From a virus (taxonomy: Duplodnaviria > Caudoviricetes), in IMG/VR virus record IMGVR_UViG_3300038679_000359, positions 1 to 30,901 of that record: a stretch of 30,901 nt of DNA. The stretch is one strand, 5' to 3'. Each line of letters opens with the position of its first letter. Positions within the stretch are counted from its first letter, which is position 1. Shown one piece after another: positions 4,988 through 20,509 of this stretch. Below the pieces are notes generated by a model. It was not told where the DNA came from. It searched no databases and was given only the letters and a program-made list of their open reading frames with translations. A program made the position numbers and the translations under genes.

Positions 4988-5004
4988 TAATCAAACATTT
5001 ATCG

Positions 5005-5035
5005 CCACTCCTGCTTTAATCATTGGCAGGAGTGG
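5005..5035. promoter_or_regulatory. GC-rich hairpin between early and middle genes
   Basis: CCACTCCTGC-N11-GCAGGAGTGG perfect 10-bp stem; no U-tract. Confidence 0.5.
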
Positions 5036-5071
5036 GCAAGCGGCGTTGACCACTGCATAGGAGTAGATAAG

Positions 5072-5320
5072 ATGACCACCATAGATGAGAAACAACAACT
5101 GGAGATTAATATGGGCATCTTTACAGAAGACCGCTGTTACCGACCTGACGAGATTGCAGATAAGCTGCATGTCGATAAGTCCACTATCTACAGACTGATT
5201 AAAGACATGCTGGACCCTCTGCCTGCCTTCCGCATTAAGGAGCAGGGACAGCTCCGCTGTTACGGCAGAGATATCAATGCTTATCTCGACAGTCACAAGG
5301 TGAGACCTGAATATGAGTAA
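5072..5320 (+). CDS. Small HTH (excisionase/MerR-like) DNA-binding protein, candidate late regulator
   Basis: YRPDEIADKLHVDKSTIYRLI...LPAFRI...LR motif; alternative start at 5111. Confidence 0.75.
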   Translation: MTTIDEKQQLEINMGIFTEDRCYRPDEIADKLHVDKSTIYRLIKDMLDPLPAFRIKEQGQLRCYGRDINAYLDSHKVRPEYE

Positions 5321-5762
5321 TGATCGTGAGTTCCGCATCAAGCGGGAAAACTGCAAAGAGACCTACCTGAACGGTAATACCGATGCCCATGAATTGGCTG
5401 TGATTTTCGGTGTGTCCGAGATCACAGTCCGCAAGTGGGTCAAGTCGGGTAATTGGGATGCGCTGTACAAGGAAGAGCGCAAGCTGGACAATGACATTAA
5501 AGTTGCCCGTAAGAAAGCTCTGATTCAAGCCTTGAGAGAGTATGCCAAGTTCCCGGCAGACACCGCTCTGCAGTCTCTGGTTAACCTGATTAAGCAGGAT
5601 CAGAAGGATAGCGAACCTGCCAAGGAACTCAATGATTACATTGTCCGCTTTATGGATCAGTCTACCGACTTCATGATAGAGAAAGGCTACGAGACACTAC
5701 TTAAACAATACCAGGCTATCGTGCTTGACTTAGCTGAATACCTCAGACAGCGCAACGGATAA
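5313..5762 (+). CDS. Probable terminase small subunit (N-terminal HTH)
   Basis: ELAVIFGVSEITVRKWVKSGNWD HTH; upstream of large terminase. Confidence 0.65.
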   Translation: MSNDREFRIKRENCKETYLNGNTDAHELAVIFGVSEITVRKWVKSGNWDALYKEERKLDNDIKVARKKALIQALREYAKFPADTALQSLVNLIKQDQKDSEPAKELNDYIVRFMDQSTDFMIEKGYETLLKQYQAIVLDLAEYLRQRNG

Positions 5763-5839
5763 GAGCATGAATACCAACATTATGATAAACACTCCGTCCC
5801 TGAATCTCTCTGACCTAACGCCTCCCAACCCTGATCATT

Positions 5840-7393
5840 ATGCCTAAGAAGTTCATTCAAAGGCATAACAAGGCACTGGCGGAGATCGCATCCAAGACGA
5901 TCTCCGTTTTGCCTTTTATAGACGATAATCCTGATGCCAAGGTAGAACGCATCACCAGAACCATGGGAGATGACTGGTCTGCTTTCTCTTTCTTCTGCCG
6001 GACTTACTTTCCACATGTTTTTGTATTACCTTTCTGCCCAGTGCATGAGACTATGTTCGATGAGACCCAAAACTCTGAAGGGATCATCGGCATCACAGGT
6101 TTTCGTGGACTGGGCAAAACGGTACTAATGGGAGTGGTTTATCCGATCTGGAAGATTATCAAAGGCGAGAAGTATGTTATCCATACCGCTGCTGATGTCG
6201 ATCTCTCGCAGGAACGCACTGCTTTCACACTGCATGAACTGACAAACAACCGCAGACTCTTAGGGGACTTTCCTGAGCTTCAACCTGTGGACTCTTTTGA
6301 TCTGGACTTCTATCTCAAGAACAAGACCCGCATCCGAGCCAGGAGTATTAAGCAATCCCATCGTGGAACCCTGAACCCCAAGACAGCCAAACGCCCCGGA
6401 CTGATAGTTTGTGATGATATAGACAAAGAAGAGAACATGGGCAACCAGTCCATCGGCAAGAGGCGCATGGATAAGATTACTCAGGAGTTGGCAGGAGCTT
6501 TAGCACCGGAAGGAACAGGTAAGGTAATCTGGCTCGGTAACCTTGTACATCCCAACTATGCCATCTGTCAGTTCCAGCAACTCATAATAGACGATTTAAA
6601 GGCAGATCATCCTGACTTGGATATTGTATCAAATCCGGTCGTAAAATGCCACCAGAGAGCTATTATGCGCTTTCCTTTGGAGAATCCGGACGGTAGCTCA
6701 GCTTGGGAAGAGCAATACCCTACAAGTACGCTTCCAAACCTGAGAGCTAAGTTTGGCAGTACCGGTTACCAGAGAGAGATGCTCGGACAGCCGGTGATCG
6801 AAGGCAATATCTTCAAACACCAGTGGTTCACCAAATACAGAAACCTGCCTGCTCCATCTCTAATGAAGCGTGTCTGGATGTATGCCGACCCGGCATGGGG
6901 AGAGAAGGGTTGTTTCAAAGCTATCATCTCCATCGGCTATGACGGCAACAGGTTCTATGTTATCCATGTTTGGATACGTCAGACTGAGAACACCAAGTTC
7001 TTCAGATATTACCATGATACTTATCAGGAACTGGAATCAATTTACAAAGCCAAGTTCCGCTCTGCCATCGAGACCAGCTACGGTCAGGCTCGTATCCTTG
7101 CCGACTTCGACAGGTGGGCTAAGGATAACAACCTGAATCCCATCTCCCACCGAATAAAGCGCATTGATAACAAAGAAAACAAGAACCTTAGAATAGAGAG
7201 AACCGAGACCAGCATCGAGACTGCCAAGATACTCTTCCCCGACGGACAGGATACACCTACCCTGATCAGTCAGTTCCTTACCTATCCTGATGGTTATATC
7301 GATGGTTGTGATGCCCTTGCCGGATGTCTGGAACGCTTCAATGAATATGACATTGGCAGGAACAGAGTCCGGGTCCGGAGGTTTAGCTTCTGA
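5840..7393 (+). CDS. Terminase large subunit
   Basis: Walker A GFRGLGKT, Walker B LIVCDDID, nuclease YADPA ... DGCDALA. Confidence 0.9.
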   Translation: MPKKFIQRHNKALAEIASKTISVLPFIDDNPDAKVERITRTMGDDWSAFSFFCRTYFPHVFVLPFCPVHETMFDETQNSEGIIGITGFRGLGKTVLMGVVYPIWKIIKGEKYVIHTAADVDLSQERTAFTLHELTNNRRLLGDFPELQPVDSFDLDFYLKNKTRIRARSIKQSHRGTLNPKTAKRPGLIVCDDIDKEENMGNQSIGKRRMDKITQELAGALAPEGTGKVIWLGNLVHPNYAICQFQQLIIDDLKADHPDLDIVSNPVVKCHQRAIMRFPLENPDGSSAWEEQYPTSTLPNLRAKFGSTGYQREMLGQPVIEGNIFKHQWFTKYRNLPAPSLMKRVWMYADPAWGEKGCFKAIISIGYDGNRFYVIHVWIRQTENTKFFRYYHDTYQELESIYKAKFRSAIETSYGQARILADFDRWAKDNNLNPISHRIKRIDNKENKNLRIERTETSIETAKILFPDGQDTPTLISQFLTYPDGYIDGCDALAGCLERFNEYDIGRNRVRVRRFSF

Positions 7394-8290
7394 TGCAGTA
7401 CTATGACCAAATCATGCTTGAGTATTACCGGGTCTTGAACAATGCCTGGAAGACCGAAGTCAAAGATGCAGCTTACCTCGCTATCCAAATGCTAAGTGAT
7501 ATGCCAAGAAGTGAAAAGGTCAGTAAGACCCAAATAGACAAACTGATGGACATCATCAATACTCAACTTGGAGATGACTTCGCTTCCCAGGTAAACGAAC
7601 CCACCTGTCATTCCAGCGCAGGCTGGAACCCATAATTGCTGTATCCGGCTCGGACTGAGAGATACCCAAGTCCAGGCACCTGTAAAGACCTCCATCGGAC
7701 TCTGGGGAATCGAAGACCAGCACTTATCTTCCACTATTCAAAAGCAGCAAATCTTCTGGCTCGGTAACCATTTTGATGCCGATATCCGTCAAAACTTCGC
7801 TGATGTGCTATCCAAAGCAATTGATCAGGGATATACTAAGGAAATGCTGACAGAGACCTTAAAACAGCAGTTTAGCGACATTGGGGAGAAGTCCCAAGCT
7901 TACTGGCAGGGATTGGCTGAACATACGGCTCTTCGTATCAGAGAGTTTGGCAGACTGCAGGGATATAAGAAAGCGCAAGCGAAGTATTACAAGCTTGTAG
8001 TGATCCTCGATGACCGTACCAGCGACATCTGCCGGGCACTGGCTGCCCAAGATAAAGTCTATCCCTTAAACGATGCGACTGAAGTGATGGATAACCTGAT
8101 GGCTCTGGATACGAAATCAAACAGCCTGGATGATGCCAGAGACTATATCAAAGCCTTAGCTCCTTGGGTGAGTAATGACCAGATAGTCTATAACAGCAGT
8201 GACGAACCTATTGGTGTCTCAGGAGCACATACTCCTTTCCCACCTTTTCATTGGAAGTGCAGGACAATGACTCGGTTACAAAGAGATTAA
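7393..8290 (+). pseudogene. MuF/SPP1 gp7-like head morphogenesis protein, split by a frameshift near 7595-7635
   Basis: Frame 1 stops at 7635; the +1 frame is open 7595-8290 and has DDRTSDIC and PPFHWKCRT gp7 motifs; a palindrome sits at the break. Confidence 0.8.
7606..7632. repeat. REP/dRS3-like palindrome inside the MuF-like gene
   Basis: TGTCA-TTCCAGC-GCAG-GCTGGAA-CCCA; resembles the widespread GTCATTCCCGCGnAnGCGGGAATCC element. Confidence 0.6.
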
Positions 8291-8588
8291 TAAGAGCAAG
8301 TACAAAAGTTGATAATACAAACCTATGTATAGGAGGCTGACGACAAAATTGATACTACAGGCACTCCTTACTCCTATGCAGGTTATAATTGGCTTTTTAA
8401 AACCAGTATCTTTCTAAGATTCTGATAATGCATGTCTAACTTACTAATGTTTGTATTAGCTACTTATGTCATCCTGCTACTATATAGTGGTTCAATATGT
8501 ATATATAGTAAGTAAATACTAATACTACTCTACACCCAATTTACCAATGAAATAGTTACTATTGCATAAATGAGAAAAGCTATCGTCA

Positions 8589-9536
8589 CTACCTTTGTAT
8601 ACTTTTATCAATTACAATTTCGTCTATGCTAAACTTGCTCTTATTGCCATCAAAACTAATAATTTTATTGCCGACAATGTCTATAATAGTGCTATTTCTC
8701 CAATATTTTGTATCTAATTTCCCAATTAACTGGCCTTGTAATCCGAATATTTCAATTGAGGAGAGTTTTGTTTGGTTTGGATTTACAAAACATAATACAA
8801 CATATTTCCAACCAGCAAATATATTAAATAATCTACTTTTGTTGGGTTTGATAATTTCGAATTTACGACTTTCTGAGGTATCCATATAGTTAAGATGATA
8901 AATGTTAGCATTTATCTGGCATGTAATGATTGCATCATTACGATTTGAATCAATAAGCAGTGGTTGCTGGTAAGGCTTTCTTTTTAATACTTTAAGATTA
9001 ATTGGTACAATCCTATATAAAACCGGTTTGATATCTCTAACCTGTTTATAGATACGTAAGCTTTGTTGCTTGTTTTCATCATAAAAGTTAGTAACATTAA
9101 AAAAAAGTGTATCACTGAACTCAGCAATATCTGTATACAAAGACCAATCATCTATCAAAGGTTCTTGATTAAGTAAATCTCCAGCACTTGAAAAGAATGT
9201 CAAGTTGTAATGTGATGCATCATAAACAACAAATTCACTCTTACCAAATAGATATCTTGCAAAACTAATCTGGGCAAATCCAGAATTTGAGGGGATAAAG
9301 GAATTCACCAAATTTCTCCCTCTGTAATCGTAACAATATGTTTTTGTGTTTGTTGAATCCTTCGTATCAATCACATATATTATTGAATCTGATACCATGA
9401 ATTTTACATAACTGGGGTCCAATTTACTTCCAGTATACTTAAAACTATTAACATGTGATATAGTAACATTAGATTTGGATGCACAAATACCATATTGTAA
9501 TGTGCAAATTAGGATTATGCATAAACACACTCTCAT
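8589..9536 (-). CDS. Secreted beta-propeller-like protein (operon L, gene 4)
   Basis: N-terminal hydrophobic signal MRVCLCIILICTLQYGICA; repeated blade-like motifs YDYRGRNL, FFSSAGDLL, IFGLQGQLI. Confidence 0.65.
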   Translation of the reverse strand: MRVCLCIILICTLQYGICASKSNVTISHVNSFKYTGSKLDPSYVKFMVSDSIIYVIDTKDSTNTKTYCYDYRGRNLVNSFIPSNSGFAQISFARYLFGKSEFVVYDASHYNLTFFSSAGDLLNQEPLIDDWSLYTDIAEFSDTLFFNVTNFYDENKQQSLRIYKQVRDIKPVLYRIVPINLKVLKRKPYQQPLLIDSNRNDAIITCQINANIYHLNYMDTSESRKFEIIKPNKSRLFNIFAGWKYVVLCFVNPNQTKLSSIEIFGLQGQLIGKLDTKYWRNSTIIDIVGNKIISFDGNKSKFSIDEIVIDKSIQR

Positions 9537-9537
9537 T

Positions 9538-10965
9538 TTAGACTCCTAACTCAAACTTTGCATAGTGTCGATTAAAAAAGTTGCTATCATTATCGATAAT
9601 TTCACAATAAAGCTGCAAGTCTGCATATATGGTGTCCCTATGCTTCTGGCAGGTTCCATTTTTATCGGACTCTGACAATTTGATTGTAAAATAACATTGT
9701 CTGCACAGGCTTACTGCCCAACACATTCTACATTTGTCAATTAGAAACTCATGATACCTATTCACTAAAGAAGTTTTTAACTCGTCAATAATGCCAGTTT
9801 CGGCATTTCCAATACTGTTATTAGCTGATGGCATTTTTTCACAAAAGTAATAATCTCCTGTTGTATCAATGAATACAATATCTTCACAAGGATTACATGC
9901 ACCACCAAATGGTACGGTTAAGTTCTTTATTATTTTATTAGATAGCTTTACATATATATCTCTTAATTCATCAAACAATAACATTTGACCCACTTTGAAT
10001 TCAAATTCTTTCAAATAATCAGACTCTTCCTCAACTCTGTATGACTTTGTCATTTTATTGATAGCCGAGTTCATAAGATTGTTTAGATATGAATTGTCAT
10101 AGAAATATTGAGTATTTGTAGAATTCAATATCTGCGATAGTTGTATTGAGCCGACATTGAACAAATCACGATTACTCGAAAAATATCTAAATGCTTCCTT
10201 TAATATTTCCTCATTCTCGTATGTAATTTTAAAGAAAACTTGGCTATCATACGAGCTAGGGGCTCTGACTTTAAAACTTATTAGATTGTCAATAATCGCA
10301 TTAAATGAACCTGAACCATCAACAAATCTTCGGTTTTTGTCGTGAATTTCCGCATTCCCATCAATGCTTACATGAATAATGAAATTGTTTTCTAATAAGA
10401 AATCAAGATTGCTTTCTCTTAACAAGCTTCCATTAGTAGTCACGCTATATACAATTTCTTTAGTTGGGTATGTTTTCCTTATGTATTCTACAGTTTCAGA
10501 AATAATATCTATACGTAGGAGTGGTTCACCACCATAAAAACATAATATCATTTTATTGTGTTTAGAGTATAGCCTATCAACAATCTTCTTTATGCAATCA
10601 ATAGTTATCGATGCAAAAGAATGAAATCGATAACCTAGGTCGGAGTATGAACCACTAAATACGCAATAAGTGCATCTAAAATTACATTCCTTAGTTACAC
10701 ACAACGTCAATTTAATTGCATAATTTGCAGATTCCCTATCAATCTCATTATTACGGAATGAACTAATTGGTAAAGGTAAATAGCATAGTAAGGTTGCAGG
10801 TAATTCAAAGTCTATTAATCTGTCTGATTGAGATGGATTGCTTGTTTTACTATTTTGTATGAGTTCATATATTTCTTTAGAGATTCTATATAGTCGATTT
10901 TCAACGGGGTGATATAAATAGTTTACACCACCCCTTGTTTGAAATATCTGTGAAGCTAACATCAA
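9538..10965 (-). CDS. Radical SAM/SPASM peptide or protein maturase (operon L)
   Basis: CNFRCTYC, FYGGEPLL, TTNG, SIDG; SPASM C-x12-G-x4-C and CRMCWAVSLCRQC; RRE-like N-terminus. Confidence 0.93.
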   Translation of the reverse strand: MMLASQIFQTRGGVNYLYHPVENRLYRISKEIYELIQNSKTSNPSQSDRLIDFELPATLLCYLPLPISSFRNNEIDRESANYAIKLTLCVTKECNFRCTYCVFSGSYSDLGYRFHSFASITIDCIKKIVDRLYSKHNKMILCFYGGEPLLRIDIISETVEYIRKTYPTKEIVYSVTTNGSLLRESNLDFLLENNFIIHVSIDGNAEIHDKNRRFVDGSGSFNAIIDNLISFKVRAPSSYDSQVFFKITYENEEILKEAFRYFSSNRDLFNVGSIQLSQILNSTNTQYFYDNSYLNNLMNSAINKMTKSYRVEEESDYLKEFEFKVGQMLLFDELRDIYVKLSNKIIKNLTVPFGGACNPCEDIVFIDTTGDYYFCEKMPSANNSIGNAETGIIDELKTSLVNRYHEFLIDKCRMCWAVSLCRQCYFTIKLSESDKNGTCQKHRDTIYADLQLYCEIIDNDSNFFNRHYAKFELGV

Positions 10966-10966
10966 T

Positions 10967-11374
10967 TTACTTTGTACTAGCTGTTGTCTGACCAGGTATA
11001 GCTTCAGCTGCTTTACCAGTTTTCTTCCCTAAATCAATATTCGTTGATCCATGTCCAAAAAACCAACCGCATCTACAACTAGCATTTACAACACAATCAC
11101 CAATGGCAGGTGCTCTGATAACCATAGGACCATCGATGCTTTCAATAGATGTTTTTTCGGTCGAAAACACAGGATAAGTAAAAACGTAAATGCTCTGTAA
11201 TTTATTATTTCTTTGTGGTAACATCTTGGCTATGGATATCTCCATCAATAATTTCTGTGTAGAGTTCATAGAAGGTATCACTGATGTAATAATATCAAGT
11301 CTGCCAATAAATTGGCTATTACCACCAAAGCTTAGTAAATTAGAGCAGTTCGGGTAACTATGCTGAATCAACAT
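10967..11374 (-). CDS. 135-aa protein, candidate rSAM substrate (operon L)
   Basis: GGAGG SD before ATG 11374; C-terminal DCVVNASCRCGWFFGHG; stop lies 1 nt before the rSAM start. Confidence 0.7.
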   Translation of the reverse strand: MLIQHSYPNCSNLLSFGGNSQFIGRLDIITSVIPSMNSTQKLLMEISIAKMLPQRNNKLQSIYVFTYPVFSTEKTSIESIDGPMVIRAPAIGDCVVNASCRCGWFFGHGSTNIDLGKKTGKAAEAIPGQTTASTK

Positions 11375-11402
11375 ATTTCCTCCCAATACTTATCATGAGA
11401 AT

Positions 11403-11918
11403 TTAATTGGCATTTGATAAATTGATTACATCAAACCCAGTTTTGGAATACCTTAATGAAGAATCAAGTTCTAATTCAATGGTGAAAGTACAAGTAGAAT
11501 CTCCGTCTGCAACAATAATATCTCCTGGATATAACTTGTCCGATACTGATGCATTCGATGCATTGGAGGAATTAAAAGCATCAGATATGGTCGTATTCAT
11601 AACTTGATAGTTGTAACGTAGAATTTTTACTTTATTACTCACTGAAGTTACCTCTACTTTACTAAAACCTACCGGAATTCTTAATCCTTGTTCGAAAGCT
11701 AAGTTGTCATCTGGAGTGAATTCTAAACTGATTGTATTATTGCCATCAATGATAATAATATCTCTATTATTACCGGTATTTAATATTGTTCCATTCGAAA
11801 TATATTGAGCTGCACTATCTTCGAATGCTCCATCTGAACCTAAAGTGGTTGGCCAATCAGAAGACTTGATTGCCTTCGCAATATTGGCTGCGCATAGAAT
11901 CTTAAAATCGGCTGCCAT
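11403..11918 (-). CDS. 171-aa beta-rich repeat protein, paralog of 12224-12712 (operon L, gene 1)
   Basis: AAGGAG SD; shares DW..T.G, GL..PVGF, Y.GD.I, Y.KTGF....LSNA with the partner. Confidence 0.85.
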   Translation of the reverse strand: MAADFKILCAANIAKAIKSSDWPTTLGSDGAFEDSAAQYISNGTILNTGNNRDIIIIDGNNTISLEFTPDDNLAFEQGLRIPVGFSKVEVTSVSNKVKILRYNYQVMNTTISDAFNSSNASNASVSDKLYPGDIIVADGDSTCTFTIELELDSSLRYSKTGFDVINLSNAN

Positions 11919-11945
11919 AAAAAAATCTCCTTTAAATTATAATAC

Positions 11946-11977
11946 TACAATCAAATTGTAACTCGTACAATTGTCAA
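11946..11977 (-). promoter_or_regulatory. Putative promoter of operon L (TTGACA-N22-TGTA)
   Basis: TTGACA at 11977-11972; homologous to the operon R leader. Confidence 0.6.
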
Positions 11978-12083
11978 TTCAAATCTTATTACACTAATTT
12001 ATAAGTACTTATGGTTAGTGTTATTTCGATATAATTGAGTGGATTTGATAGTGATGAATACATCTAAAATACATAATGGTTAC

Positions 12084-12104
12084 CTACCAAAATGATTTTG
12101 GTAG
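12084..12104. promoter_or_regulatory. Perfect 21-bp palindrome between the divergent operons; candidate operator
   Basis: CTACCAAAAT-G-ATTTTGGTAG. Confidence 0.55.
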
Positions 12105-12168
12105 AGACACTTCATAATTTGACATGATCATCACAAGCATCTTAACGCCATAGGATGCAAAGATTTTG

Positions 12169-12199
12169 TTGACAATTCTAGTGTGCTATAAACTGTGTA
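12169..12199 (+). promoter_or_regulatory. Putative promoter of operon R (TTGACA-N21-TGTA)
   Basis: TTGACA at 12169-12174, TGTA 12196-12199, AAGGAG SD at 12212. Confidence 0.6.
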
Positions 12200-12223
12200 T
12201 TAAAATAATTTAAGGAGAATTCA

Positions 12224-12712
12224 ATGGACATCACAGTAAGCTTTATCTCAGGTACTGTCAAAAAGGTAGTCAATCATGATTGGCTTAAGACAGTTGGTGC
12301 AGGTGGAATATGGGAAAGTGCGGCTTCCCAAATTATTTCAAGCGGGTACACTTTGAAACTCGATGAAATACTTGTATTGCAAGATAATCAAGAACTTGAT
12401 ATCACTCTTGAAACTCCCTCAACAGAAACTGACAAGGGGCTTTACGTACCAGTAGGGTTTGATCATATTGAAGTGGTAAATGCTAGTGGGAAAGTAAGGC
12501 ATCTTGCTTACGACAAACAAACTTTCGCTTCTACTATCGATAATATCAGCAGTGACCCAGCAATGCAGTTGCTTAGTATTGGTGATGTAGTATATGGTGG
12601 AGATCTGATTTCATTGGATGATTCAAGCTTAGTAACTCTTAGATTTTCGCTCGGAGATGATAGTAAGTATATCAAAACAGGTTTTAATATAGTTGCTTTA
12701 TCAAATGCATAA
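12224..12712 (+). CDS. 162-aa beta-rich repeat protein, paralog of 11403-11918 (operon R, gene 1)
   Basis: AAGGAG SD; two internal ~80-aa repeats; shared motifs with the partner. Confidence 0.85.
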   Translation: MDITVSFISGTVKKVVNHDWLKTVGAGGIWESAASQIISSGYTLKLDEILVLQDNQELDITLETPSTETDKGLYVPVGFDHIEVVNASGKVRHLAYDKQTFASTIDNISSDPAMQLLSIGDVVYGGDLISLDDSSLVTLRFSLGDDSKYIKTGFNIVALSNA

Positions 12713-12731
12713 AAGATAGAAGATTCCTTAA

Positions 12732-14213
12732 ATGTTACTTCCCGCTTTTGTGCTAGTTAATCACAATTTTGAGTTTGGGTTCTATTCTGAGAAGCGCAAT
12801 GATTTTGTAGCTGTGAGTCCGCAATTATATGAGTACTTATCTTCTATAGAGTCAATAATTGCTTCTCAGGATGAAACCAAATTGATGCCACATTTAGATT
12901 GTTTAGATAATGAATTATGTGAGTTACTTTTCTACACAGAACAATGCGATGCGTTACAGGATGATGAAGATGATATTTTGTTTAACGTAGAGCCAGATTC
13001 TATAATTGATGATCTTAAAGATGCAATGCTAACGATAGAATTAACTAATGAGTGTAATTTATCATGTCTATATTGTACTGGGGATCATAGAACTACAAAT
13101 CGCATTGATTTCATGACTGATGAAGTTGCAGACAAACTAGTTAAATTTATTGAAACAAACTATTTAGATCGGAGTATTGTTATAGCCTTTTATGGAGGCG
13201 AACCATTACTAAATTTCGATAGATTAAAGTCTATCGTAGATCAGTTTAGCAAGTCAGATTTTGTTGTTAAATCATATGGTATAACAACTAATCTCACTAT
13301 AATTAACGACGATATCATAGACTTTTTCAATGATACAAATATGAAGGTTCTCGTTAGTTTTGATGGTTATAAAGAAAATCATGACTATAATCGAAGAACA
13401 AAAAATGACGAAGGCACTTATGATGTCATTTACAAGAACATTGTAATTTTGTATGAAGGGCTAAAAAACAAGGATAACTTTGCAATAAATTGTGTAATTA
13501 CTCCAAATACTAATGTAGCTTTGCTTACAAAATATTTTAACAATTTTCCATATGTAAAAAAGAAAGGTGAGTTTTATGAAAATTTGTCTTTTAATTACGT
13601 GTCTAATATTAGCTCAAAGCTTGACTACATTAACAATTACTCGTTAGAATCAATAAGCGGTTATCAGAAGAATTATTTAGATATGCTTGAAAGAGTATCT
13701 TCGGGCAAAATAATTGAACATGTTAATTCAGAAATAGACGATTTTATTTACAACATGTGGTATCTTAGAATTTGTCATATGTACAAGATCGTGAACTTAA
13801 AGTTTAATGAAGGTTTGAAAAAAAAAGTATGTGAGCCTGGTGAAAGAAAAGTATACGTTTCATCAACAGGAGTTTTGAAAGTGTGCAATATGCTTAATAG
13901 CAAAAATTCCCATACGGATATAGGAACATTGGATAATGGATTTTCGACGGAAGTATGTGAATATATGGAAAACATTCAGAAGTCTTTTCGTAAAGGATGT
14001 ATAAATTGCTATTGCCAAAGGTTTTGTAGACCATGCCTAGCCAATATGTTTGATGATAGAGATTCAAAATTCGATAAAGAATTTATGGAAGAAACATTCT
14101 GCTTTGGAGAGAAAATGTTAAGCAGGTATGTGCTTAATTTCCTTTTTTATATATCACGATCAGATGACATTAATATGAAACAACTATTCGGAAAAATTGG
14201 AGGTTCACAATGA
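12732..14213 (+). CDS. Radical SAM/SPASM peptide or protein maturase (operon R)
   Basis: CNLSCLYC, FYGGEPLL, TTN, SFDG; SPASM C-x12-G-x4-C and CINCYCQRFCRPC; RRE-like N-terminus. Confidence 0.93.
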   Translation: MLLPAFVLVNHNFEFGFYSEKRNDFVAVSPQLYEYLSSIESIIASQDETKLMPHLDCLDNELCELLFYTEQCDALQDDEDDILFNVEPDSIIDDLKDAMLTIELTNECNLSCLYCTGDHRTTNRIDFMTDEVADKLVKFIETNYLDRSIVIAFYGGEPLLNFDRLKSIVDQFSKSDFVVKSYGITTNLTIINDDIIDFFNDTNMKVLVSFDGYKENHDYNRRTKNDEGTYDVIYKNIVILYEGLKNKDNFAINCVITPNTNVALLTKYFNNFPYVKKKGEFYENLSFNYVSNISSKLDYINNYSLESISGYQKNYLDMLERVSSGKIIEHVNSEIDDFIYNMWYLRICHMYKIVNLKFNEGLKKKVCEPGERKVYVSSTGVLKVCNMLNSKNSHTDIGTLDNGFSTEVCEYMENIQKSFRKGCINCYCQRFCRPCLANMFDDRDSKFDKEFMEETFCFGEKMLSRYVLNFLFYISRSDDINMKQLFGKIGGSQ

Positions 14214-14593
14214 AAGCTGACAGAATTATGTTCACAATTGGCGACATTAACACGAATACAATGAAAAATAGTGTTATAACTTATCGAGTTGAAGAAACGG
14301 GTTTAATATCTGGCAATTGGGGTTATCGTGAAGTACAACTATGCAGTTATAGACTCTATCATGGTGGTTCTGAACATGAAGTTTACGACCAACCTCATTG
14401 CCACCACTTGCCCCGCGTTAGACAAGCAATTGAAAGAATAGGTAGATGGTGCAATATTTTGGGCGGTGCTAGATGCGAACCTGCTGGGACTTGTGCTGAA
14501 AATTCTACTGGGGTTGATCAAACTGTCCATATGCAATATGATGTAGCTCATGTGCAAAATGGATTTTTCGTTGGTTCTACAGCAGGTATGTAA
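14210..14593 (+). CDS. 127-aa Cys/His/Gly-rich protein, candidate rSAM substrate (operon R)
   Basis: GGAGG SD, ATGA-coupled to rSAM; PHCHH and RWCNILGGARCEPAGTC segments. Confidence 0.72.
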   Translation: MKADRIMFTIGDINTNTMKNSVITYRVEETGLISGNWGYREVQLCSYRLYHGGSEHEVYDQPHCHHLPRVRQAIERIGRWCNILGGARCEPAGTCAENSTGVDQTVHMQYDVAHVQNGFFVGSTAGM

Positions 14594-14608
14594 CAAGGAT
14601 GATGTAAT

Positions 14609-15757
14609 ATGTCAATTTCGATAAAACTAACTACAGCATATTTACTTATAGTATGTAGTATTCTTTCTGGTTGCATTGCACATAACTTTAAAGCTAAGGA
14701 TAGCATAAGAGTCGTTTCTCAAGATGGGGCTACTCTTTTGGGGCATCACTTTTTCTCAACCTCAACAGGCTTCAATACTAGTCCAGGCTTGCCTTTGGTA
14801 ATCGGTAAAACAATATTTGTACCAGTTTATTTCACGAAACCCAAGGCTGATTGGTACACAATCTTGTATTCTTATGATTGGACTAAAAACGAAGTTAAAG
14901 ATAGCCTTATCATTAGAAAAGAAAAAACAAATTCAGAAATACTAAGAATATTACCCAAGGGCGATAGCTTGTTTATCCTAGTATCAGAAAAGACTTTAAT
15001 GGGATATTCTAGGAGTGTGCTAATAAAAACTAATTTACACTTAAGTGTCTATGATGAAGATACGTTACCCCTAACATATGACAGAGTGTTTGACGTTACA
15101 TGGAGTAGCAAATCCTTATTATTTATCTCATCTGACAATGGGAAGGTTAAGTTAACCGAAATTGATCCCTATACATCTTCGATAACCTTAACTCAAGAGA
15201 TTGAGCCATATTGTCAATCTGCTATGTTCTGTGACGGAAAACTTATTATGGTGAATACTGTATCACAAGAAGTATTTATTACATTAATGGATATTAATAG
15301 TATCGATAGTATGCAAAAACCGGTAATAAAGAAATTGAACATTAATGAGTCTGATATTCATAATATTACTATGATGTCGGACAACGGTACCGCTTATATT
15401 GCAATTTACTTGCCGGATGATAAGACAGCAATGATAACAGCAATTGACCTTGATTCAAACAATTTGCTAACGAAACGAATTGAAGCAACATCATGTGCCG
15501 TTGCACGGATTGCCGACAAAGAGTATCTTTTTTTAGATCAAAGCATGCAAGGTAAATCAGATCTAAGTATTGTTGAGCTATCGGCAAACCTCTCGCCAAC
15601 CAAGCAAAGCCTGTCATTTTCGGCATCATCATATATGCAGCATGCGGTTGGGTTTGTAAATCTCGGTAATAACAACTTTGTATTGACTGGTATATCACGT
15701 AGAAATCCAAAAAGCAATTTTAGTACTTTTATTGTTGTTGGAGAGAAGAGCCGTTAA
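14609..15757 (+). CDS. Lipoprotein, beta-propeller-like (operon R, gene 4)
   Basis: Signal peptide with lipobox LSG-C22; beta-strand-rich repeats (LYSYDW, LTEIDP, ITAIDL). Confidence 0.7.
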   Translation: MSISIKLTTAYLLIVCSILSGCIAHNFKAKDSIRVVSQDGATLLGHHFFSTSTGFNTSPGLPLVIGKTIFVPVYFTKPKADWYTILYSYDWTKNEVKDSLIIRKEKTNSEILRILPKGDSLFILVSEKTLMGYSRSVLIKTNLHLSVYDEDTLPLTYDRVFDVTWSSKSLLFISSDNGKVKLTEIDPYTSSITLTQEIEPYCQSAMFCDGKLIMVNTVSQEVFITLMDINSIDSMQKPVIKKLNINESDIHNITMMSDNGTAYIAIYLPDDKTAMITAIDLDSNNLLTKRIEATSCAVARIADKEYLFLDQSMQGKSDLSIVELSANLSPTKQSLSFSASSYMQHAVGFVNLGNNNFVLTGISRRNPKSNFSTFIVVGEKSR

Positions 15758-16288
15758 ATACATTAGTTTTTTGTATTATTGTCATCGAAACTATGATAAA
15801 TAATCAGGTTGGTATGGATTAAAATTATATATTCTCAATGATTTTTTTTTATTCTATACCTTCATGCATTTCTTAATTTGTAGTATAATATAGTTGCTCA
15901 AGTTAAAATGAACATACTCCATTTTATTGGCCAGTAATATATGAACACTTTGCTAAAGACTTCTTTTCAAAGACATCAATAAACTCTCTTGGTTAAAATT
16001 CAACACCCTGTGGTGTATTTCCTAATGGTAATACTTGCGCTAGTTCTCAATACCCTCCTTTCATCAAATAAAAAAAGCAATAATTTATGTTAATGACTGA
16101 CCATAAACCATTTAATAAGTGTGTCTTACATGGAATTTATGTGTGTATTATACCATCAGACGACGAAAGTTACTTTTTAGAGATACGATGACCAAGCAGT
16201 GTATAACTAAAGATAACATAAGCAGCGAGGCAAGATACAAGTCTATAAAATAAATCTTCTTTATCATTATTTGTGTGGCATCCATTGG

Positions 16289-16351
16289 CAAGCTGATTTG
16301 ATAAAATCACCCGCAGCATGTTCCTATCACTCCGAATACAATATTTGGAGT
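16289..16351 (+). promoter_or_regulatory. Putative late promoter motif plus RBS-sequestering hairpin before endolysin
   Basis: CAAGCTGATTTG-ATAAA-ATCAC; stem ACTCCGAATA/TATTTGGAGT covers the GGAG SD. Confidence 0.65.
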
Positions 16352-16355
16352 ATAG

Positions 16356-16778
16356 ATGGAACAGTGCCTATTAGTTAGAGTCAAAGAGCAACTCATCCGG
16401 CACGAAGGTTTGAGATTAAAGCCCTATCGTTGTACAGCAGGTAAACTGACCATTGGTGTGGGTCGCAATCTCGATGACTGCGGGATATCAAAGCCAGAAG
16501 CAATGGTGCTTCTGGATAACGATATACTGAACTGTGAAGCTGAACTGCTGGAGCATCTGCCTGTTGTCTATATGGGATTGAATGATACCCGCAAAGCAGT
16601 TCTGGTGAGCATGTGCTTCAACCTCGGGATATCCTGTCTGTTGGGCTTCAAGAACACTTTAGCTTTTATTGGTGCCGGAGACTTCGAGAGAGCCTCCAAT
16701 AACATGCTGGCTTCCAAGTGGGCAAAACAGGTCGGTCTGCGAGCCATTGAACTGTCTGAGATGATGAGGAAAGGCTAA
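16356..16778 (+). CDS. Endolysin, T4-type/GH24 lysozyme-like
   Basis: HEGLRLKPYRCTAGKLTIGVGRNL catalytic region; MCFNLG; SKWAKQVG.RA. Confidence 0.9.
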   Translation: MEQCLLVRVKEQLIRHEGLRLKPYRCTAGKLTIGVGRNLDDCGISKPEAMVLLDNDILNCEAELLEHLPVVYMGLNDTRKAVLVSMCFNLGISCLLGFKNTLAFIGAGDFERASNNMLASKWAKQVGLRAIELSEMMRKG

Positions 16779-17238
16779 TGCCTCCTGCATACCCAGTTTC
16801 AATTCCGGATGTGTTATCCGTGCTCAATCTTCCGGCAGACATGGAAACCAATAGTGTATTCAAGAATCATGCTCCCTTGGTTCTGGAACTGGTACGTCTG
16901 GTGGTGATCGATAACTATTACCAGTCTGCCTTTGATCCCAGAGTGGGAGAGATGATGCTCTCTATATCGCCTTTCGTTATGCCTACTGTTTCTACATGCT
17001 TTATTCCACCTGCGAGTTCCTCAATTTAAAGACTTTAGGCGAGGGTATCGTCAAGACCGTAGGATTAGACCAATCAGCAACAGAACTGCTCACAGGTGCG
17101 GAAATAGACGCATTCAAAGCCAACCTTGAGAAGCGGGCACTGACTCTACTCGGTGCTTATCTGAACCCTGTTGGATTTGCCAAACTGGAACAGTTATCTC
17201 CCAGACCGGCACGGAAGCTTAGAGTTGGAGTCATCTAA
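16778..17238 (+). pseudogene. Putative head-tail connector-type gene split by a -1 frameshift near 16944-16951
   Basis: ORFs 16778-17029 and 16996-17238 join into ~153 aa if one base is added in GTGGGAGAGATGAT; both ends TAATG-coupled to neighbours. Confidence 0.7.
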
Positions 17239-17744
17239 TGGCAGATACTATTTCCACTGATGCCACCTTCACTTCTGTGGATGAGATGATGACTGCCATT
17301 TATAGGGCTATCTATACGGCTCTGGAGAGCAGACTGCATCTGATCGGTTCCACTATCGATGGCGATGCCAGGAGAGAGATACTTGCCCAGAACATCTATG
17401 ACAAAGGTGACTTCTACGGCAATACCGGCTATCTGGTAGAAACTGCCTCTGACTCAATGATCCTGCATATAGGCTCCAATGTAAAACATGAACCATTTGT
17501 ACTGGGTGGCAAAGTGCCTTCCTGGACTCCCATAGCCCCGCTAATTAGTTGGGTCGAACGCAAGCACCTGTCCTGGACTGATAAAAAGACAGGTCTTGAG
17601 TTGACTATCGAAGAGATCGCTTATCTCATCCGGGGCAAGATAAAGCGGGAAGGCATAGCTGCCCGGAACATTTTTGCTGAAGTACTGGCTAATAGAGAGC
17701 CGTGGATATACCAGCAGCTTAACTCCATCGAGGTCAGACTATGA
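17238..17744 (+). CDS. Putative neck/virion morphogenesis protein
   Basis: IGSNVKHEPFV.GG and I.REGIAAR motifs typical of gp10/gpG-like neck proteins; context. Confidence 0.55.
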   Translation: MADTISTDATFTSVDEMMTAIYRAIYTALESRLHLIGSTIDGDARREILAQNIYDKGDFYGNTGYLVETASDSMILHIGSNVKHEPFVLGGKVPSWTPIAPLISWVERKHLSWTDKKTGLELTIEEIAYLIRGKIKREGIAARNIFAEVLANREPWIYQQLNSIEVRL

Positions 17745-17746
17745 TA

Positions 17747-18217
17747 TTATCCATTCAAGATTTCGATATGTTCCAAATATTCAGTATTAACAACCTCAAT
17801 ATCATCAGGAGATTCAAAAAATTGACGATAAAATATGGCTTCTCTCATATGTATAGAGGGGTTCAAAGATTCTATGAGGTTATTAGCAGGTACAGTATAG
17901 CCAACTGTATTCAGAAATTTGGATATCGTGTTATTCAACTTGCATCCATGAGATGCGTCATGAGCAGTTCCATCTTTATTAATTGCATACAGATGATTGT
18001 TTCTGTCATAGAAATGATAATGGGGTTGAGCATTAGGAGGAACTTTGGGTTTATGCTCTATAGCAGAATAAGTTCCCCCAATAGGTTTTCCCTTATACTT
18101 CGCTTCATTAAGCAATTCAACTATATCTTCAGTCAGATTGATAGAGCTATTCTCAAAGTAGATTTGAATAATAAAATCGGGACTTTCAATGACTACTTGG
18201 CTAAAGTTAACATCCAT
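17747..18217 (-). CDS. Moron 1: hypothetical His-motif protein
   Basis: AT-rich, antisense, GGAGG SD before ATG 18217; QPHYHFY...INKDGTAHDASH. Confidence 0.7.
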   Translation of the reverse strand: MDVNFSQVVIESPDFIIQIYFENSSINLTEDIVELLNEAKYKGKPIGGTYSAIEHKPKVPPNAQPHYHFYDRNNHLYAINKDGTAHDASHGCKLNNTISKFLNTVGYTVPANNLIESLNPSIHMREAIFYRQFFESPDDIEVVNTEYLEHIEILNG

Positions 18218-18230
18218 TGTTACCTCCAAA

Positions 18231-18261
18231 TACACCTTGATGAACTATCAAAATATGTCAA
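18231..18261 (-). promoter_or_regulatory. Putative moron 1 promoter (TTGACA-N21-TGTA)
   Basis: TTGACA at 18261-18256, TGTA at 18234-18231. Confidence 0.55.
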
Positions 18262-18282
18262 TACTAACCTGTGGAGCATTCA

Positions 18283-18690
18283 ATGAACAACGTCGACAAA
18301 TTTATAGCTGAACGTGATAAATTGTGTGCTGTCCTGCAACCTATTGTCGGGGATAATATCCAGTTCAATAAGGACATCATCCCCAAGAACTTTCCCTGCG
18401 CCATTGTTATCTTAGACACAGAGGTCGGAATCAGACCCACCATCAGCAGGTTTACCTCCACTCTCATTACATGGACAGTCTATCTGATTACCAATGCCCA
18501 CGAAGTGGCTGATCCTGATTTGGCTATCTATGTTCTCAAAGATAAGTTCAGAGAAATTTATCAGACCCACTTCAATAAAGACATTCCCTCTGTGGAGTAT
18601 TACACATCCAGAGTGGATGGCACCCGACCAGTGCGCATAGCCAAGCTGAACGTCACACCGCAGCAAAGCCTGTCCGAGAGTAAGGTTTAG
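18283..18690 (+). CDS. Putative tail terminator/completion protein
   Basis: GGAG SD; IPKNFPCAIVIL motif; size and position. Confidence 0.5.
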   Translation: MNNVDKFIAERDKLCAVLQPIVGDNIQFNKDIIPKNFPCAIVILDTEVGIRPTISRFTSTLITWTVYLITNAHEVADPDLAIYVLKDKFREIYQTHFNKDIPSVEYYTSRVDGTRPVRIAKLNVTPQQSLSESKV

Positions 18691-18696
18691 GTTACT

Positions 18697-19875
18697 ATGA
18701 AAGTAATGCGGATAGGCAACTACAATGTCGGCATCAGTTCCACTTCTGATCTCTTAGATACCAAGTACAAACCTGATGCTGTCGACCTTTCCAAATGCAA
18801 ACGAGTCGGCAAACGATTGATCTCCAAAGAAGCCGAAGCTAAGAAGCTTGTAGCCCAACCATATGCCATGAGCAAGCTCTTAACCTTACTCGATACAGAT
18901 GAGTACCATGCCGGTTGTGTGGATGCCATTACGATGGCAACTGTCCTGCAATTCGAGTGCAAGAACTCTTCTGTCAATGCCTGGCTTACTTCGGCTGAGT
19001 TTCCCGGTACGGAAGACCCGGCCACTATCCTGTCTGAACTGGTGAAATACTATATCTCATGTGGAAACGGCTTCCTGATTAAGATGCGTAATCCCAAAGG
19101 AGAGTGGGTAGGACTGGAAAGACTATTACCCACAGAAGCGCAGATCGTGGAGAAGCATGATGAGTTCGGGTTCTTCAGACCTGACTATATCCAAGTTAAG
19201 AATAACGTCAAACAGGACTTTGCCAATACCGATATCCTCCACTTTCGCAAGAGCACCCACAAATCCAATGCATGGGGATTAGCCTGTTTGCCAATTGCCA
19301 TCAATGTCGAGATACTCTCCGAGATCAAGACCTTCGACTATAACAACTTCAAGAACGGTCTGATGATCGATTACTTCGTGATTGTGGAAGGTGGAACGCT
19401 CAGAGATGGCACCGTAACAGATGAGCAGGGCAATGAAGTGATGACCGATGCATATACTGAAATAGAGAAGGCATTGATCGATGTCAAAGGCAATGGCAAA
19501 AGCCACAGCACCGTACTGATTGAAAGCGAAAGCAAGGATGTGCATATCCGGCTTGAGCCTCTGCGTCAACAGGACAGAGAAGGTGGTTTCCTGTCACTTA
19601 AGAAAGACCTCAGAGAAGGCATCTTTGCCTATCACAGAGTGCCGGCCCGCATCGTATCCCAATTAATACCAGGACAACTGGGTGGTGATAACAAGAGCGA
19701 TATGCAGATGTTCCACCACTTCGTAATCCGACCCATTCAACAGAGATTGGCTCTCATCCTCTCCAAAGAGTTCAACCGCGAATACCGGTGGAATGTAACA
19801 CCTGCTGACTTCAACTTCGGTGATCTGACCAGCCTGTTTGAGTCTGCAGATGAGAAGCTATTTAATCCTCGATAG
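18697..19875 (+). CDS. Portal protein (PBSX-family-like)
   Basis: YISCGNGFL, NNFKNG, IFAYHRVP, VIRPIQQRL portal motifs. Confidence 0.85.
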   Translation: MKVMRIGNYNVGISSTSDLLDTKYKPDAVDLSKCKRVGKRLISKEAEAKKLVAQPYAMSKLLTLLDTDEYHAGCVDAITMATVLQFECKNSSVNAWLTSAEFPGTEDPATILSELVKYYISCGNGFLIKMRNPKGEWVGLERLLPTEAQIVEKHDEFGFFRPDYIQVKNNVKQDFANTDILHFRKSTHKSNAWGLACLPIAINVEILSEIKTFDYNNFKNGLMIDYFVIVEGGTLRDGTVTDEQGNEVMTDAYTEIEKALIDVKGNGKSHSTVLIESESKDVHIRLEPLRQQDREGGFLSLKKDLREGIFAYHRVPARIVSQLIPGQLGGDNKSDMQMFHHFVIRPIQQRLALILSKEFNREYRWNVTPADFNFGDLTSLFESADEKLFNPR

Positions 19876-20314: not shown

Positions 20315-20353
20315 GATAGACCTCTCTTTATAACCCATATTTATTGGATAAAT

Positions 20354-20384
20354 TACATAAATTAGCAGTTTATCCTATTGTCAA
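20354..20384 (-). promoter_or_regulatory. Putative moron 2 promoter (TTGACA-N21-TGTA)
   Basis: TTGACA at 20384-20379, TGTA at 20357-20354. Confidence 0.55.
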
Positions 20385-20504: not shown

Positions 20505-20509
20505 GTACA

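Follow-up and report, generated by a model that had tools for sequence, protein, structure and literature searches.

A Mu-like phage genome carries a cassette of two divergent four-gene groups, each built around a radical SAM/SPASM (rSAM) enzyme and a protein of a previously undescribed family, here termed A. The stable core of the cassette is the A–rSAM pair: A adjoins an rSAM gene, or is separated from it by one gene, in seven of the eight copies with readable surroundings, and this co-occurrence was the check set in advance by the preliminary description of the 30,901-nt window (the whole stretch of DNA analysed). The proposal made there, of a functional unit in which an rSAM/SPASM enzyme that modifies a peptide or protein is joined by a first gene not described before, is supported. 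As the best explanation we suggest, with moderate confidence and from sequence comparisons, that the rSAM thioether-cross-links a Cys-bearing protein (C), that A is an abundant non-catalytic partner, and that a fourth protein (D), a predicted exported propeller, is an exchangeable accessory.

Table 1. Features of the two modules (L and R) and of the surrounding phage region
Feature	Coordinates	Strand	Length	Description
left anchor	7393..8290	+		MuF-like gene, two frames here; PF04233
cargo slot	8270..16345			hypervariable, MuF to lysozyme; edges approximate, from blastn
D_L	8589..9536	-	315 aa	ORF; likely a divergent beta-propeller of DUF5128/TolB-like type; export predicted from hydrophobic N-terminus
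rSAM_L	9538..10965	-	475 aa	radical SAM/SPASM, RRE-like N-terminal extension; PF04055
C_L	10967..11374	-	135 aa	candidate long precursor: Cys10, C94-x5-C100-x-C102-x5-H108
A_L	11403..11918	-	171 aa	first gene, L clade of the undescribed A family; beta-sandwich predicted
divergent-unit gap	11919..12223		305 nt	promoters inferred
A_R	12224..12712	+	162 aa	first gene, A family, R clade; without Cys
rSAM_R	12732..14213	+	493 aa	radical SAM/SPASM, RRE-like N-terminal extension; PF04055
C_R	14210..14593	+	127 aa	candidate long precursor: C64-H65, C81, C89, C95, H107, H114
D_R	14609..15757	+	382 aa	predicted lipoprotein (LSGC lipobox by reading); likely beta-propeller
right anchor	16356..16778	+		phage lysozyme; PF00959

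All eight ORFs are real genes and lie where the two divergent groups had been described (Table 1), in the order A-C-rSAM-D in module L and A-rSAM-C-D in module R. The intergenic gaps within the modules are 28, 1, 1, 19, -4 and 15 nt; the tight coupling reported earlier thus holds for the ATGA overlap that joins C_R to rSAM_R and for most gaps, given as 1-19 nt, with the 28-nt gap falling outside that range. The same four gene types had been assigned to both modules, and this is borne out for A, where the paralogy of A_L and A_R is clear (34% identity, 169 aa, E 4e-26), and for the rSAMs (25% identity). No homology between modules is detected for C (z -0.6, 390 of 500 shuffles as good; hhalign E 0.43) or D (best E 0.15). 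The modules are not a duplication, as had been suggested, because their rSAMs are only 25% identical and each groups with an orthologue in another chromosome. The closer counterparts occur in different Cloacimonadota chromosomes, that of module L at locus L002 (32% identity to rSAM_L) and that of module R at locus L001 (37% identity to rSAM_R). Nor is the quartet fixed: C and D can be exchanged, the L001 D being an FG-GAP protein unrelated to D_R, and at three further loci (L087, L088 and L089) there is no C gene between A and rSAM. The L087 and L089 contigs end inside the rSAM gene, and the 103 nt that remain after the rSAM of L088 contain no ORF start.

Both rSAMs contain the CxxxCxxC, C-x12-G-x4-C and CxxC-x5-CxxC motifs, as noted earlier. 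The SPASM cysteines 367, 385, 423, 426, 432 and 435 (rSAM_R numbering) are invariant in 13 rSAMs and Cys457 is nearly so. CcpM, lachnocin and PapB maturases form the top NCBIfam rows; the best match of rSAM_L is the CcpM model TIGR04068 (241 bits, residues 7-456), against which rSAM_R scores 183 bits, with the model starting at residue 17, and the L088 rSAM 161 bits. A profile of the 13 rSAMs has 5WGG/5WHY as its best solved relative (E 1.6e-64), 5WHY being CteB (PMC13692751), and the alignment to 5WGG begins at profile position 23, so that it includes most of the N-terminal extension. No PqqD Pfam match was found in this extension, which is RRE-like by profile alignment. By these sequence scores the two rSAMs are closest to CteB/CcpM, yet below every family cut-off. 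Membership of CcpM was rejected (cut-off 500), as was that of the GG-Bacteroidales family (TIGR04148; 136 and 93 bits against a cut-off of 300, with no GG-leader precursor match). Prokaryotic viperins were likewise discarded, as PADLOC gave only partial rSAM-core cross-matches (47 and 44 bits) and SPASM is present. The rSAMs adjoining A have mutual identities of only ~19-37% and probably do not constitute one clade, this grouping appearing in 0% of 200 bootstrap trees with a borderline AU p of 0.041; rSAM_L itself falls among rSAMs that lack a neighbouring A (branch 91/96).

The A proteins are an unannotated, previously undescribed family without sequence matches in Pfam, NCBIfam, PHROGs or PDB, and comprise at least 28 clusters of ~170-aa proteins (30 rows, 2 judged spurious) from Cloacimonadota, LCP-89 and Calditrichota. 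A_R is 47% identical to A of L001, and A_L groups in the tree with P0003-P0006 (SH-aLRT 95). Where a beta-repeat protein had been described, a cupin-like beta-sandwich without metal histidines is predicted instead: the AF2 model of A_R (pLDDT 88.5) is mostly beta, and the half-versus-half repeat signal is weak, with shuffles as good in 6 of 1000 cases for A_L and 76 of 1000 for A_R. With VIA, the best match of A_R has a Z of 6.1 (RMSD 2.9 Å, 98 aligned), none reaching 8, and cupins appear at Z 5-6; similarity to FecR-bearing Atlas clusters is at TM 0.42-0.46, i.e. under 0.5. A shares this weak fold likeness with cupin/double-stranded beta-helix and FecR-like domains, but differs from cupins in the absence of conserved metal histidines and of a significant Foldseek match (best E 6.6e-3). 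A metal-binding cupin enzyme was rejected, as no His column reaches 60% in 30 sequences and several members have no His at all. Two residues, G72 and D127, are the sole invariant ones among the 30 aligned members, and conservation peaks in the tail, at residues 151-162 (0.69 versus 0.25-0.55 in a 7-member Cloacimonadota-type alignment). A Cys four residues after D127 is present in 17 of the 30 sequences, L087-L089 among them; it is missing from the 7 Cloacimonadota-type members, and A_R and L001 A are devoid of Cys. An AGGAG-type site precedes A at seven of eight loci (it is weak in L088), reading AAGGAG upstream of both A_L and A_R, and a strong hairpin lies between A and rSAM in L087 (z -3.6) and L089 (z -5.4; both from single-base shuffles).

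The earlier statement that the cassette has no precursor is probably wrong, because C is composed like a long Cys precursor. The C_L orthologue in L002 keeps C10, C94, C100, C102 and H108 (z 5.3; 2 of 500 shuffles), and the C_R orthologue in L001 keeps C64-H65, C81, C89, C95, H107 and H114 (z 18; 0 of 500 shuffles), giving four conserved Cys per pair; the Trp in the former Cys/Trp label of C_L is not kept in L002. Since A_R and L001 A lack Cys, R-type cassettes have no small Cys donor other than C. C_L starts with an ATG preceded by GGGAGG, and no Shine-Dalgarno site was seen at the start of rSAM_L. The C_R Atlas model is poor (pTM 0.29). No NCBIfam precursor family matches C_L, C_R or their orthologues, and C_L has no match in Pfam or PHROGs. 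Counting against C as substrate are the unrelatedness of C_L and C_R, with two known members in each family, and the loci L087-L089 already mentioned. D_L is homologous to the gene at the equivalent position in L002 (E 4e-10). The backing for the propeller calls for D is weak: D_L and D_R have no Pfam match, the hhalign comparison of D_L with 11 Cloacimonadota DUF5128/TolB-like propellers is weak (E 0.005, probability 7%, collinear in the N-terminal part; E 0.27 for D_R), and the single-sequence AF2 model of D_R is of low confidence (pLDDT 50), nearly all beta, with mostly propellers in its top Foldseek rows (E ~3e-6, TMq 0.33).

Seven loci in five genomes (L100-L106) carry related rSAMs without any A homologue. 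A Cys-containing ORF of 45-75 aa lies near the rSAM in all seven, propeller lipoproteins occur in six, and ABC exporters are often present. A propeller is not an unusual partner, as A-less rSAM clusters of Cloacimonadota routinely carry DUF5128/TolB-like ones. These clusters resemble the cassette in their related rSAMs, the propeller and a CxC-type motif as in C_L, but differ in lacking A, in their shorter precursors and in usually having an exporter. The profile of five of the short precursors scores C_L no better than chance (173 of 300 shuffles as good), so the kinship of C_L with them rests on a CxC..H motif recognized by eye. The absence of a peptidase or ABC exporter from the cassette, noted earlier, agrees with our Pfam scan; none was found in the window or at the L001 and L002 loci, where no exporter adjoins the cassette.

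The Mu-like phage context was confirmed by the presence of transposase, MuB-like ATPase, terminase, MuF, lysozyme and portal genes, and the cargo site is a genuine low-GC, variable slot (32.8% GC versus 45.9% in the rest of the window). In blastn, likeness to related phage loci stops mostly at 8265-8278 and restarts mostly at 16340-16401, with no match inside the slot. The MuF-like gene, split here over two frames, is an intact 292-aa gene in the phage locus L015. Of 80 related loci, 50 have slot gaps that measure 3.3-9.9 kb and differ in content; their cargo is mostly restriction and other defence genes, defence-like genes occurring at 34 of the 50 loci and in 29 of the 39 cargo sets that are distinct. 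The scan behind these figures covered 72 of 142 cluster representatives, of which 35 were counted once 5 cross-hits had been dropped. The A/rSAM cassette is absent from the slot of all 50. An rSAM plus ABC cluster of ordinary RiPP type occupies the equivalent slot of L015, and another lies in the corresponding upstream region of L028. The cassette is not phage-specific, the L001 and L002 copies being chromosomal and amid housekeeping genes. Metatranscriptome contigs cover 13 of 15 and 12 of 15 slot-spanning bins in two studies, a coverage due to the choice of runs, since the cassette was the query that picked them out; the contigs carry no strand or level information and the libraries may contain DNA. 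In both studies A_L is connected with C_L, and A_R with rSAM_R, on individual contigs, the A_L-C_L contig ending near the rSAM_L start in each (10986 and 10946), which is a weak hint, and X6 contigs end at 11912 and begin at 12219, flanking the 305-nt gap. A promoter scan across the cassette gave 45 hits versus 45.2 expected by chance, i.e. no excess.

Based on these features, we propose that two divergent transcripts would start within the 305-nt gap, and that A and C, whose Shine-Dalgarno sites have no equivalent at the rSAMs, may be made in excess over the enzyme. The putative RRE of the rSAM N-terminus would grip C at its conserved N-terminal part, and the enzyme would cross-link Cys in the C-terminal half of C in the manner of CteB- and CrpC-type enzymes. 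Features expected of ranthipeptide-type systems are seen here, namely an rSAM core with a 7-Cys SPASM and a neighbouring candidate substrate with conserved Cys. A would bind C or the enzyme, probably via its conserved tail, perhaps as a chaperone or carrier that replaces the peptidase/ABC exporter often present in A-less relatives. The product would benefit the lysogen through envelope competition or signalling, or through phage defence, the former being slightly favoured because of D.

The main alternative, which we consider rather unlikely, is that A itself is the substrate, a folded protein of ~170 aa. Its modification might be, for example, a thioether formed by the Cys that follows the invariant Asp at a distance of four residues, or a change to the C-terminal tail; C would then be a further, optional substrate. 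That A and rSAM are the only constant pair would fit, as would the first position and strong ribosome site of A and the presence of this Cys at loci with no C between A and rSAM; the hairpin after A is a precursor-gene layout and points the same way, and protein-sized rSAM substrates have a precedent in CrpA (PMC13692751). However, the Cys-free A proteins speak against it, a compact fold as predicted for A would be hard to thread into the rSAM barrel unless the tail alone were used, L087 and L089 may have a C gene beyond the contig end, and rSAMs that are probably not one clade are easier to reconcile with a transferable partner than with a substrate that co-evolves. We consider it clearly unlikely that the cassette is a CcpM-like cluster of the ordinary kind, for a bacteriocin or for signalling, with exporter and protease elsewhere in the host genome and A a linked passenger without chemical role. 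The placement of rSAM_L among A-less enzymes with short precursors, propellers and often exporters agrees with such a cluster, as do the rSAM plus ABC clusters of L015 and L028, but A keeps its first-gene position beside divergent rSAMs in prophage, chromosomes and metagenome contigs, C is twice as long as the A-less precursors, and L001 and L002 have no adjoining exporter.

The gene content also recalls the qhp layout of a small Cys protein, an rSAM/SPASM enzyme and a propeller, QhpC being another protein-sized rSAM substrate. A quinohemoprotein-amine-dehydrogenase-like enzyme, with C as a QhpC-like cross-linked cofactor subunit and D as the catalytic propeller subunit, is nevertheless very improbable: TIGR03906 scores of 117 and 95 bits fall far short of its 453-bit cut-off, neither C pair has a conserved Trp, no haem subunit was found at any locus, and D is replaced in L001. 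Whatever the chemistry, the cassette could act against phages, as a radical-SAM equivalent of the lanthiphage clusters that lack an exporter, a function we regard as tentative and somewhat unlikely. The frequent defence-like clusters in the slot, the covering RNA contigs and the lack of an exporter are consistent with it, and lanthiphages sit in defence islands, mostly without ABC transporters (10.1101/2024.06.26.600839); against it stand the housekeeping surroundings of the chromosomal copies, the acceptance of ordinary RiPP plus ABC clusters by the slot, the generic viperin cross-matches in PADLOC, and predicted exported propellers that suggest envelope action. It seems improbable, with a slim chance of being true, that A defines a new class among radical-SAM-modified proteins, its folded beta-sandwich of ~170 aa being cross-linked by the rSAM, to itself where Asp-x3-Cys is present or together with C where this motif is lost; prophages would then carry in their defence slot the first anti-phage system based on radical-SAM/SPASM protein modification, with two specificities placed back to back.

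CcpM systems combine a short Cys-rich precursor of the CLI_3235 type with a peptidase/ABC exporter in the cluster. The cassette shares with CcpM/CLI_3235 (TIGR04068) and CteB/SCIFF maturases the RRE-like extension, the rSAM, the 7-Cys SPASM and a Cys-bearing small neighbour gene, but differs in its 127-138 aa candidate substrate without precursor-family match, in lacking the exporter and in the extra conserved gene A. CrpC of Methanococcus voltae has seven SPASM Cys (three in AuxI, four in AuxII) and installs ranthionine links on a protein, so that the Crp system (CrpC/CrpA) is like the present one in its RRE/rSAM/SPASM enzyme (here with a putative RRE), 3+4 auxiliary Cys and protein-sized substrate; CrpA, in contrast, is Cys-rich with repeats, while C is free of repeats and contains 4-5 Cys, and the portion of that account available to us describes no A- or D-like genes (PMC13692751). 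Against TIGR04463 the rSAMs score 57 and 55, compared with 525. Lanthiphages are likewise RiPP-type, prophage-borne, with extra genes and near defence genes, and mostly without exporter (ABC transporters in 18.3% versus 63.4% in the comparison reported), but they use lanthipeptide chemistry, belong to Actinobacteria and have demonstrated anti-phage activity, whereas the cassette is known from its genes and its propellers point outward (10.1101/2024.06.26.600839).

The MuF-lysozyme slot of Cloacimonadota-type Mu-like prophages is also a hotspot for defence genes, and its many cargos without annotation merit mining. Few rSAM/SPASM enzymes that act on protein-sized substrates are known and they are actively sought (PMC13692751); the cassette offers two divergent, directly testable enzyme/substrate sets and adds a conserved partner family, matching no library searched, in uncultured Cloacimonadota, LCP-89 and Calditrichota. 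Should A prove to be a chaperone or carrier, it would be a new kind of RiPP accessory and could explain exporter-less clusters; if A is the substrate, its modification would be a new protein modification.

The record has the content of a Mu-like transposable phage, and its cargo slot, an 8-kb stretch between a MuF-like gene and the lysozyme gene, has a GC content of 32.8% compared with 45.9% elsewhere in the window. Eight ORFs occupy the slot in two divergent groups, viz., module L on the minus strand, with the order A-C-rSAM-D, and module R on the plus strand, with the order A-rSAM-C-D, where A is an undescribed family of about 170 aa, C a Cys-bearing protein of 127-135 aa and D a likely exported propeller; the intergenic gaps within the modules are 28, 1, 1, 19, -4 and 15 nt. 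The names of the nearest homologues point to Cloacimonadota as the likely host, and since the A proteins of the window are also recorded from a contig of 864 kb, the window is probably a prophage. Both phage arms and the cassette lie on a single DNA contig of run X1, possibly the window's own source, with no mismatch. This contig also matches the window across the MuF-like gene, which is split into two frames corresponding to aa 1-71 and 78-290 of an intact 292-aa gene in the related phage locus L015. The gene 3' of the lysozyme is likewise broken relative to a 152-aa L015 gene, and the prophage may be decaying. A tandem pair of D12-class adenine methyltransferase genes is present in the phage late region. 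Promoter and terminator scans gave no more than chance, and the sole long repeat is the 3' end common to the two A genes (42 nt, 76%).

The modules had been regarded as duplicates in the preliminary description, a claim that fails because their rSAMs are 25% identical, their C and D proteins show no similarity by sequence comparison, and each module is matched by a same-order counterpart in a different Cloacimonadota genome, where no phage genes were seen around it. The two A proteins share 34% identity. The R-type counterpart (L001) matches over A (47%), rSAM (37%) and C (z of 18), its D position being taken by an FG-GAP/FlgD protein unrelated to D_R, and the L-type counterpart (L002) matches over rSAM (32%), C (z of 5.3) and D (E-value of 4e-10). 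In a 15-row rSAM tree with long branches, the five A-associated enzymes had 0% bootstrap support as one group (200 trees), and their constrained grouping was narrowly rejected (AU p of 0.041). Thus, the separate counterparts and the scattered A-associated rSAMs suggest that two old cassette types were united in one slot. Nor do the genes form a fixed quartet, as had been supposed, since D is swapped in L001 and C is missing between A and rSAM in three other A loci (L087-L089). Both chromosomal cassettes sit amid housekeeping genes, and no tRNA was found in L001, L002 or L088. One weak C_L-type match (genome G186, E-value of 2e-4) has a stop within it, and no relatives of C_R were found in viral contigs.

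Both rSAMs of the window are RRE-like/rSAM/SPASM proteins whose nearest models are CcpM, lachnocin and PapB, with scores below all cut-offs. Thioethers are the product of the enzyme CteB. In profile comparisons the best solved relative is 5WGG/5WHY, identified as CteB in the available text of PMC13692751. Among 13 aligned rSAMs, six SPASM Cys residues are fully conserved and a seventh almost so, a pattern that agrees with the 3+4 ligand set given in the same text for CrpC, which cross-links a protein substrate. Seven loci around related rSAMs (L100-L106), drawn from five further Cloacimonadota genomes, lack A; they have Cys-bearing ORFs of 45-75 aa and often an ABC exporter. The presence of DUF5128/TolB-like propellers in six of these seven shows the propeller to be a usual accessory of this enzyme group; what is new is A, the long C and the absent exporter. 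Arrays of an rSAM/SPASM enzyme, a short Cys precursor and several six-bladed propeller lipoproteins occur in L100-L102 (genome G120), L104 (G119) and L106 (G138, with three rSAMs within 15 kb), and no NCBIfam model matched their short precursors. Reading the start of C_L as a degenerate RRE was rejected (27 of 300 shuffles were as good), as was a kinship of C or the A tail with the short precursors of the A-less clusters, none of the scores being significant (at best, 11 of 300 shuffles as good).

The full HMMER search for A yielded 30 representatives at E-value ≤ 0.001, of which two long repetitive proteins (P0037 and P0038) were removed as spurious, a few others being fragments; fragments P0016, P0030 and P0035 were excluded from the 30-row alignment and P0017, with an odd tail, from the tree of A proteins. 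Full-length members are mostly 163-179 aa, and those with names belong to Cloacimonadota, candidate division LCP-89 and Calditrichota, among them TKJ42401.1 from LCP-89 and MBM3326408.1 from Calditrichota. A is rare, being present by either profile in two of 232 Cloacimonadota genomes; a missing match in an incomplete genome is no proof of absence. No relatives were confirmed in pattern- or BLAST-limited searches of viral contigs, a first metagenome scan, plasmids and annotated phages, and A has no match in Pfam, NCBIfam, PHROGs, PADLOC or PDB sequences. AF2 on seven sequences gives a confident, mostly-beta domain (pLDDT 88.5) with weak cupin-like matches (Foldseek best E-value of 6.6e-3, VIA best Z of 6.1) and likewise weak Atlas rows of FecR type. 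G72 and D127 are the sole invariant residues, K13 is almost fixed and no His is conserved, which makes a metal-cupin enzyme unlikely; identification of A as FecR or a cupin enzyme was rejected.

The surroundings of A are readable for eight genes, namely both A genes of the window and those of L001, L002 and L087-L090, with about 20 other clusters outside this count. An rSAM adjoins A or lies one gene off in seven of the eight; five of these enzymes are full-length and two are truncated by the contig end, with N-termini that match the rSAM N-terminal profile (0 of 300 shuffles as good). At the eighth, L090, A is followed by an 80-aa ORF with three Cys residues, strong hairpins and the contig end, beyond which the next gene lies; the N-terminal KPFGIEF motif of this ORF is, we assume, reminiscent of graspetide leaders. 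No co-oriented, tightly coupled gene was seen 5' of A in the eight loci. A and C_L as one read-through frame was rejected, the gaps (28 and 17 nt) not being multiples of 3.

That C is the rSAM substrate, with A as its partner, is the preferred reading, which we hold at about even odds. It is favored by the four Cys residues preserved in each pair of C orthologues, by the complete lack of Cys in A_R, and by the ribosome site and short conserved N-terminal stretch of C. Against it stand the absence of C between A and rSAM in L087-L089, the lack of any ORF within 103 nt after the rSAM in L088, and a resemblance to short precursors that is not significant. That A itself is the substrate seems unlikely though conceivable. 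In its favor, A is constant across loci and first in order, hairpins follow it in L087 and L089, and a Cys at D127+4 occurs in 17 of 30 members, L087-L089 among them. That A is a passenger we consider improbable, and a QHNDH-like enzyme highly improbable.

The same slot was compared in 80 viral loci chosen by their lysozyme, 50 of which carry the MuF anchor no more than 10 kb upstream; in these 50 the gaps measure 3.3-9.9 kb and the contents are diverse. Their 224 cargo ORFs of at least 190 aa formed 142 clusters, of which 72 representatives were scanned with PADLOC; 40 matched at 1e-10, and 35 were retained after discarding five ABC, rSAM or weak cross-hits. On this basis, 34 of the 50 loci, and 29 of the 39 cargo sets that are distinct, have restriction-modification (type I, II, IIG or III), BREX or similar genes. 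Clusters of rSAM and ABC genes occupy the slot as well in related phages, so that the position raises the case for defence and does not settle it. We consider an anti-phage function of the cassette unlikely; anti-phage RiPP clusters without an exporter do exist, according to the lanthiphage preprint (10.1101/2024.06.26.600839), and the housekeeping neighborhoods of L001 and L002 speak against such a role. A, C and D gave no tblastn matches across the 80 loci. RiPP-like or ABC-transporter cargos lie in or near the slot in four loci, with rSAM and ABC genes together in L015 and L028. Big cargo genes with no PADLOC match at 1e-10, several recurring in 2-4 loci, are candidates for undescribed defence systems.

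Positions of individual features in the window and in other loci
Feature	Locus	Coordinates	Strand	Remark
Split MuF-like gene	window	7393-8290		two frames
Broken gene 3' of lysozyme	window	16778-17238		
D12-class methyltransferase pair	window	23981-25548		
Counter-oriented ORF	window	17747-18235	-	opposite strand to phage genes
Counter-oriented ORF	window	19862-20338	-	opposite strand to phage genes
Counter-oriented ORF	window	25552-26292	-	opposite strand to phage genes
80-aa ORF after A	L090	879-1121		
Near-perfect 16-bp hairpin	L089	983-1016		A-rSAM gap (gap z -5.4)
rSAM/propeller array	L106	G138:C7:62000-77000		
RiPP-like or ABC cargo	L015	6242-9806		
RiPP-like or ABC cargo	L028	1-6783		
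RiPP-like or ABC cargo	L012	4776-6500		
RiPP-like or ABC cargo	L050	4166-9358		
Big cargo without PADLOC match	L055	2312-9373		
Big cargo without PADLOC match	L027	3752-9801		
Big cargo without PADLOC match	L081	2011-8053		
Big cargo without PADLOC match	L038	2033-9728		
Big cargo without PADLOC match	L072	3414-8395		
Big cargo without PADLOC match	L042	3989-8686		

About half of the cassette's sequence words were found in two groundwater metatranscriptome studies, whose RNA contigs cover 13 and 12 of 15 slot bins and bridge A_L-C_L and A_R-rSAM_R; the runs were selected by the cassette itself and the contigs give neither strand nor level. Two other runs (X7 and X8) contain small fractions of the cassette. 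In both covering runs, RNA contigs are absent from 5000-8203 (terminase, MuF) and most late genes, and since holes in a contig set prove nothing, these phage genes are not taken as silent. Of the 13 RNA contigs located in 16200-30901, ten fall on or shortly past three ORFs that run counter to the phage genes and are candidate further morons; none has a PADLOC match, and only the last in sequence order matches a PHROG, of unknown function. Within the limits set by runs selected with the cassette, this distribution of RNA contigs is consistent with a lysogen that expresses its cargo.

The cassette is real and rare, and it was not found in the libraries searched or in the openly accessible literature covered; the available text of PMC10352776 and PMC9062424 does not describe it, and these enzymes may be listed in the supplements on rSAM networks to PMC9062424 and PMC13692751. 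It belongs to no curated family. We predict that it works like a thioether maturase system of the CteB/CcpM type, and its novelty lies in A as a conserved family, in a C of protein size and in the absent exporter.
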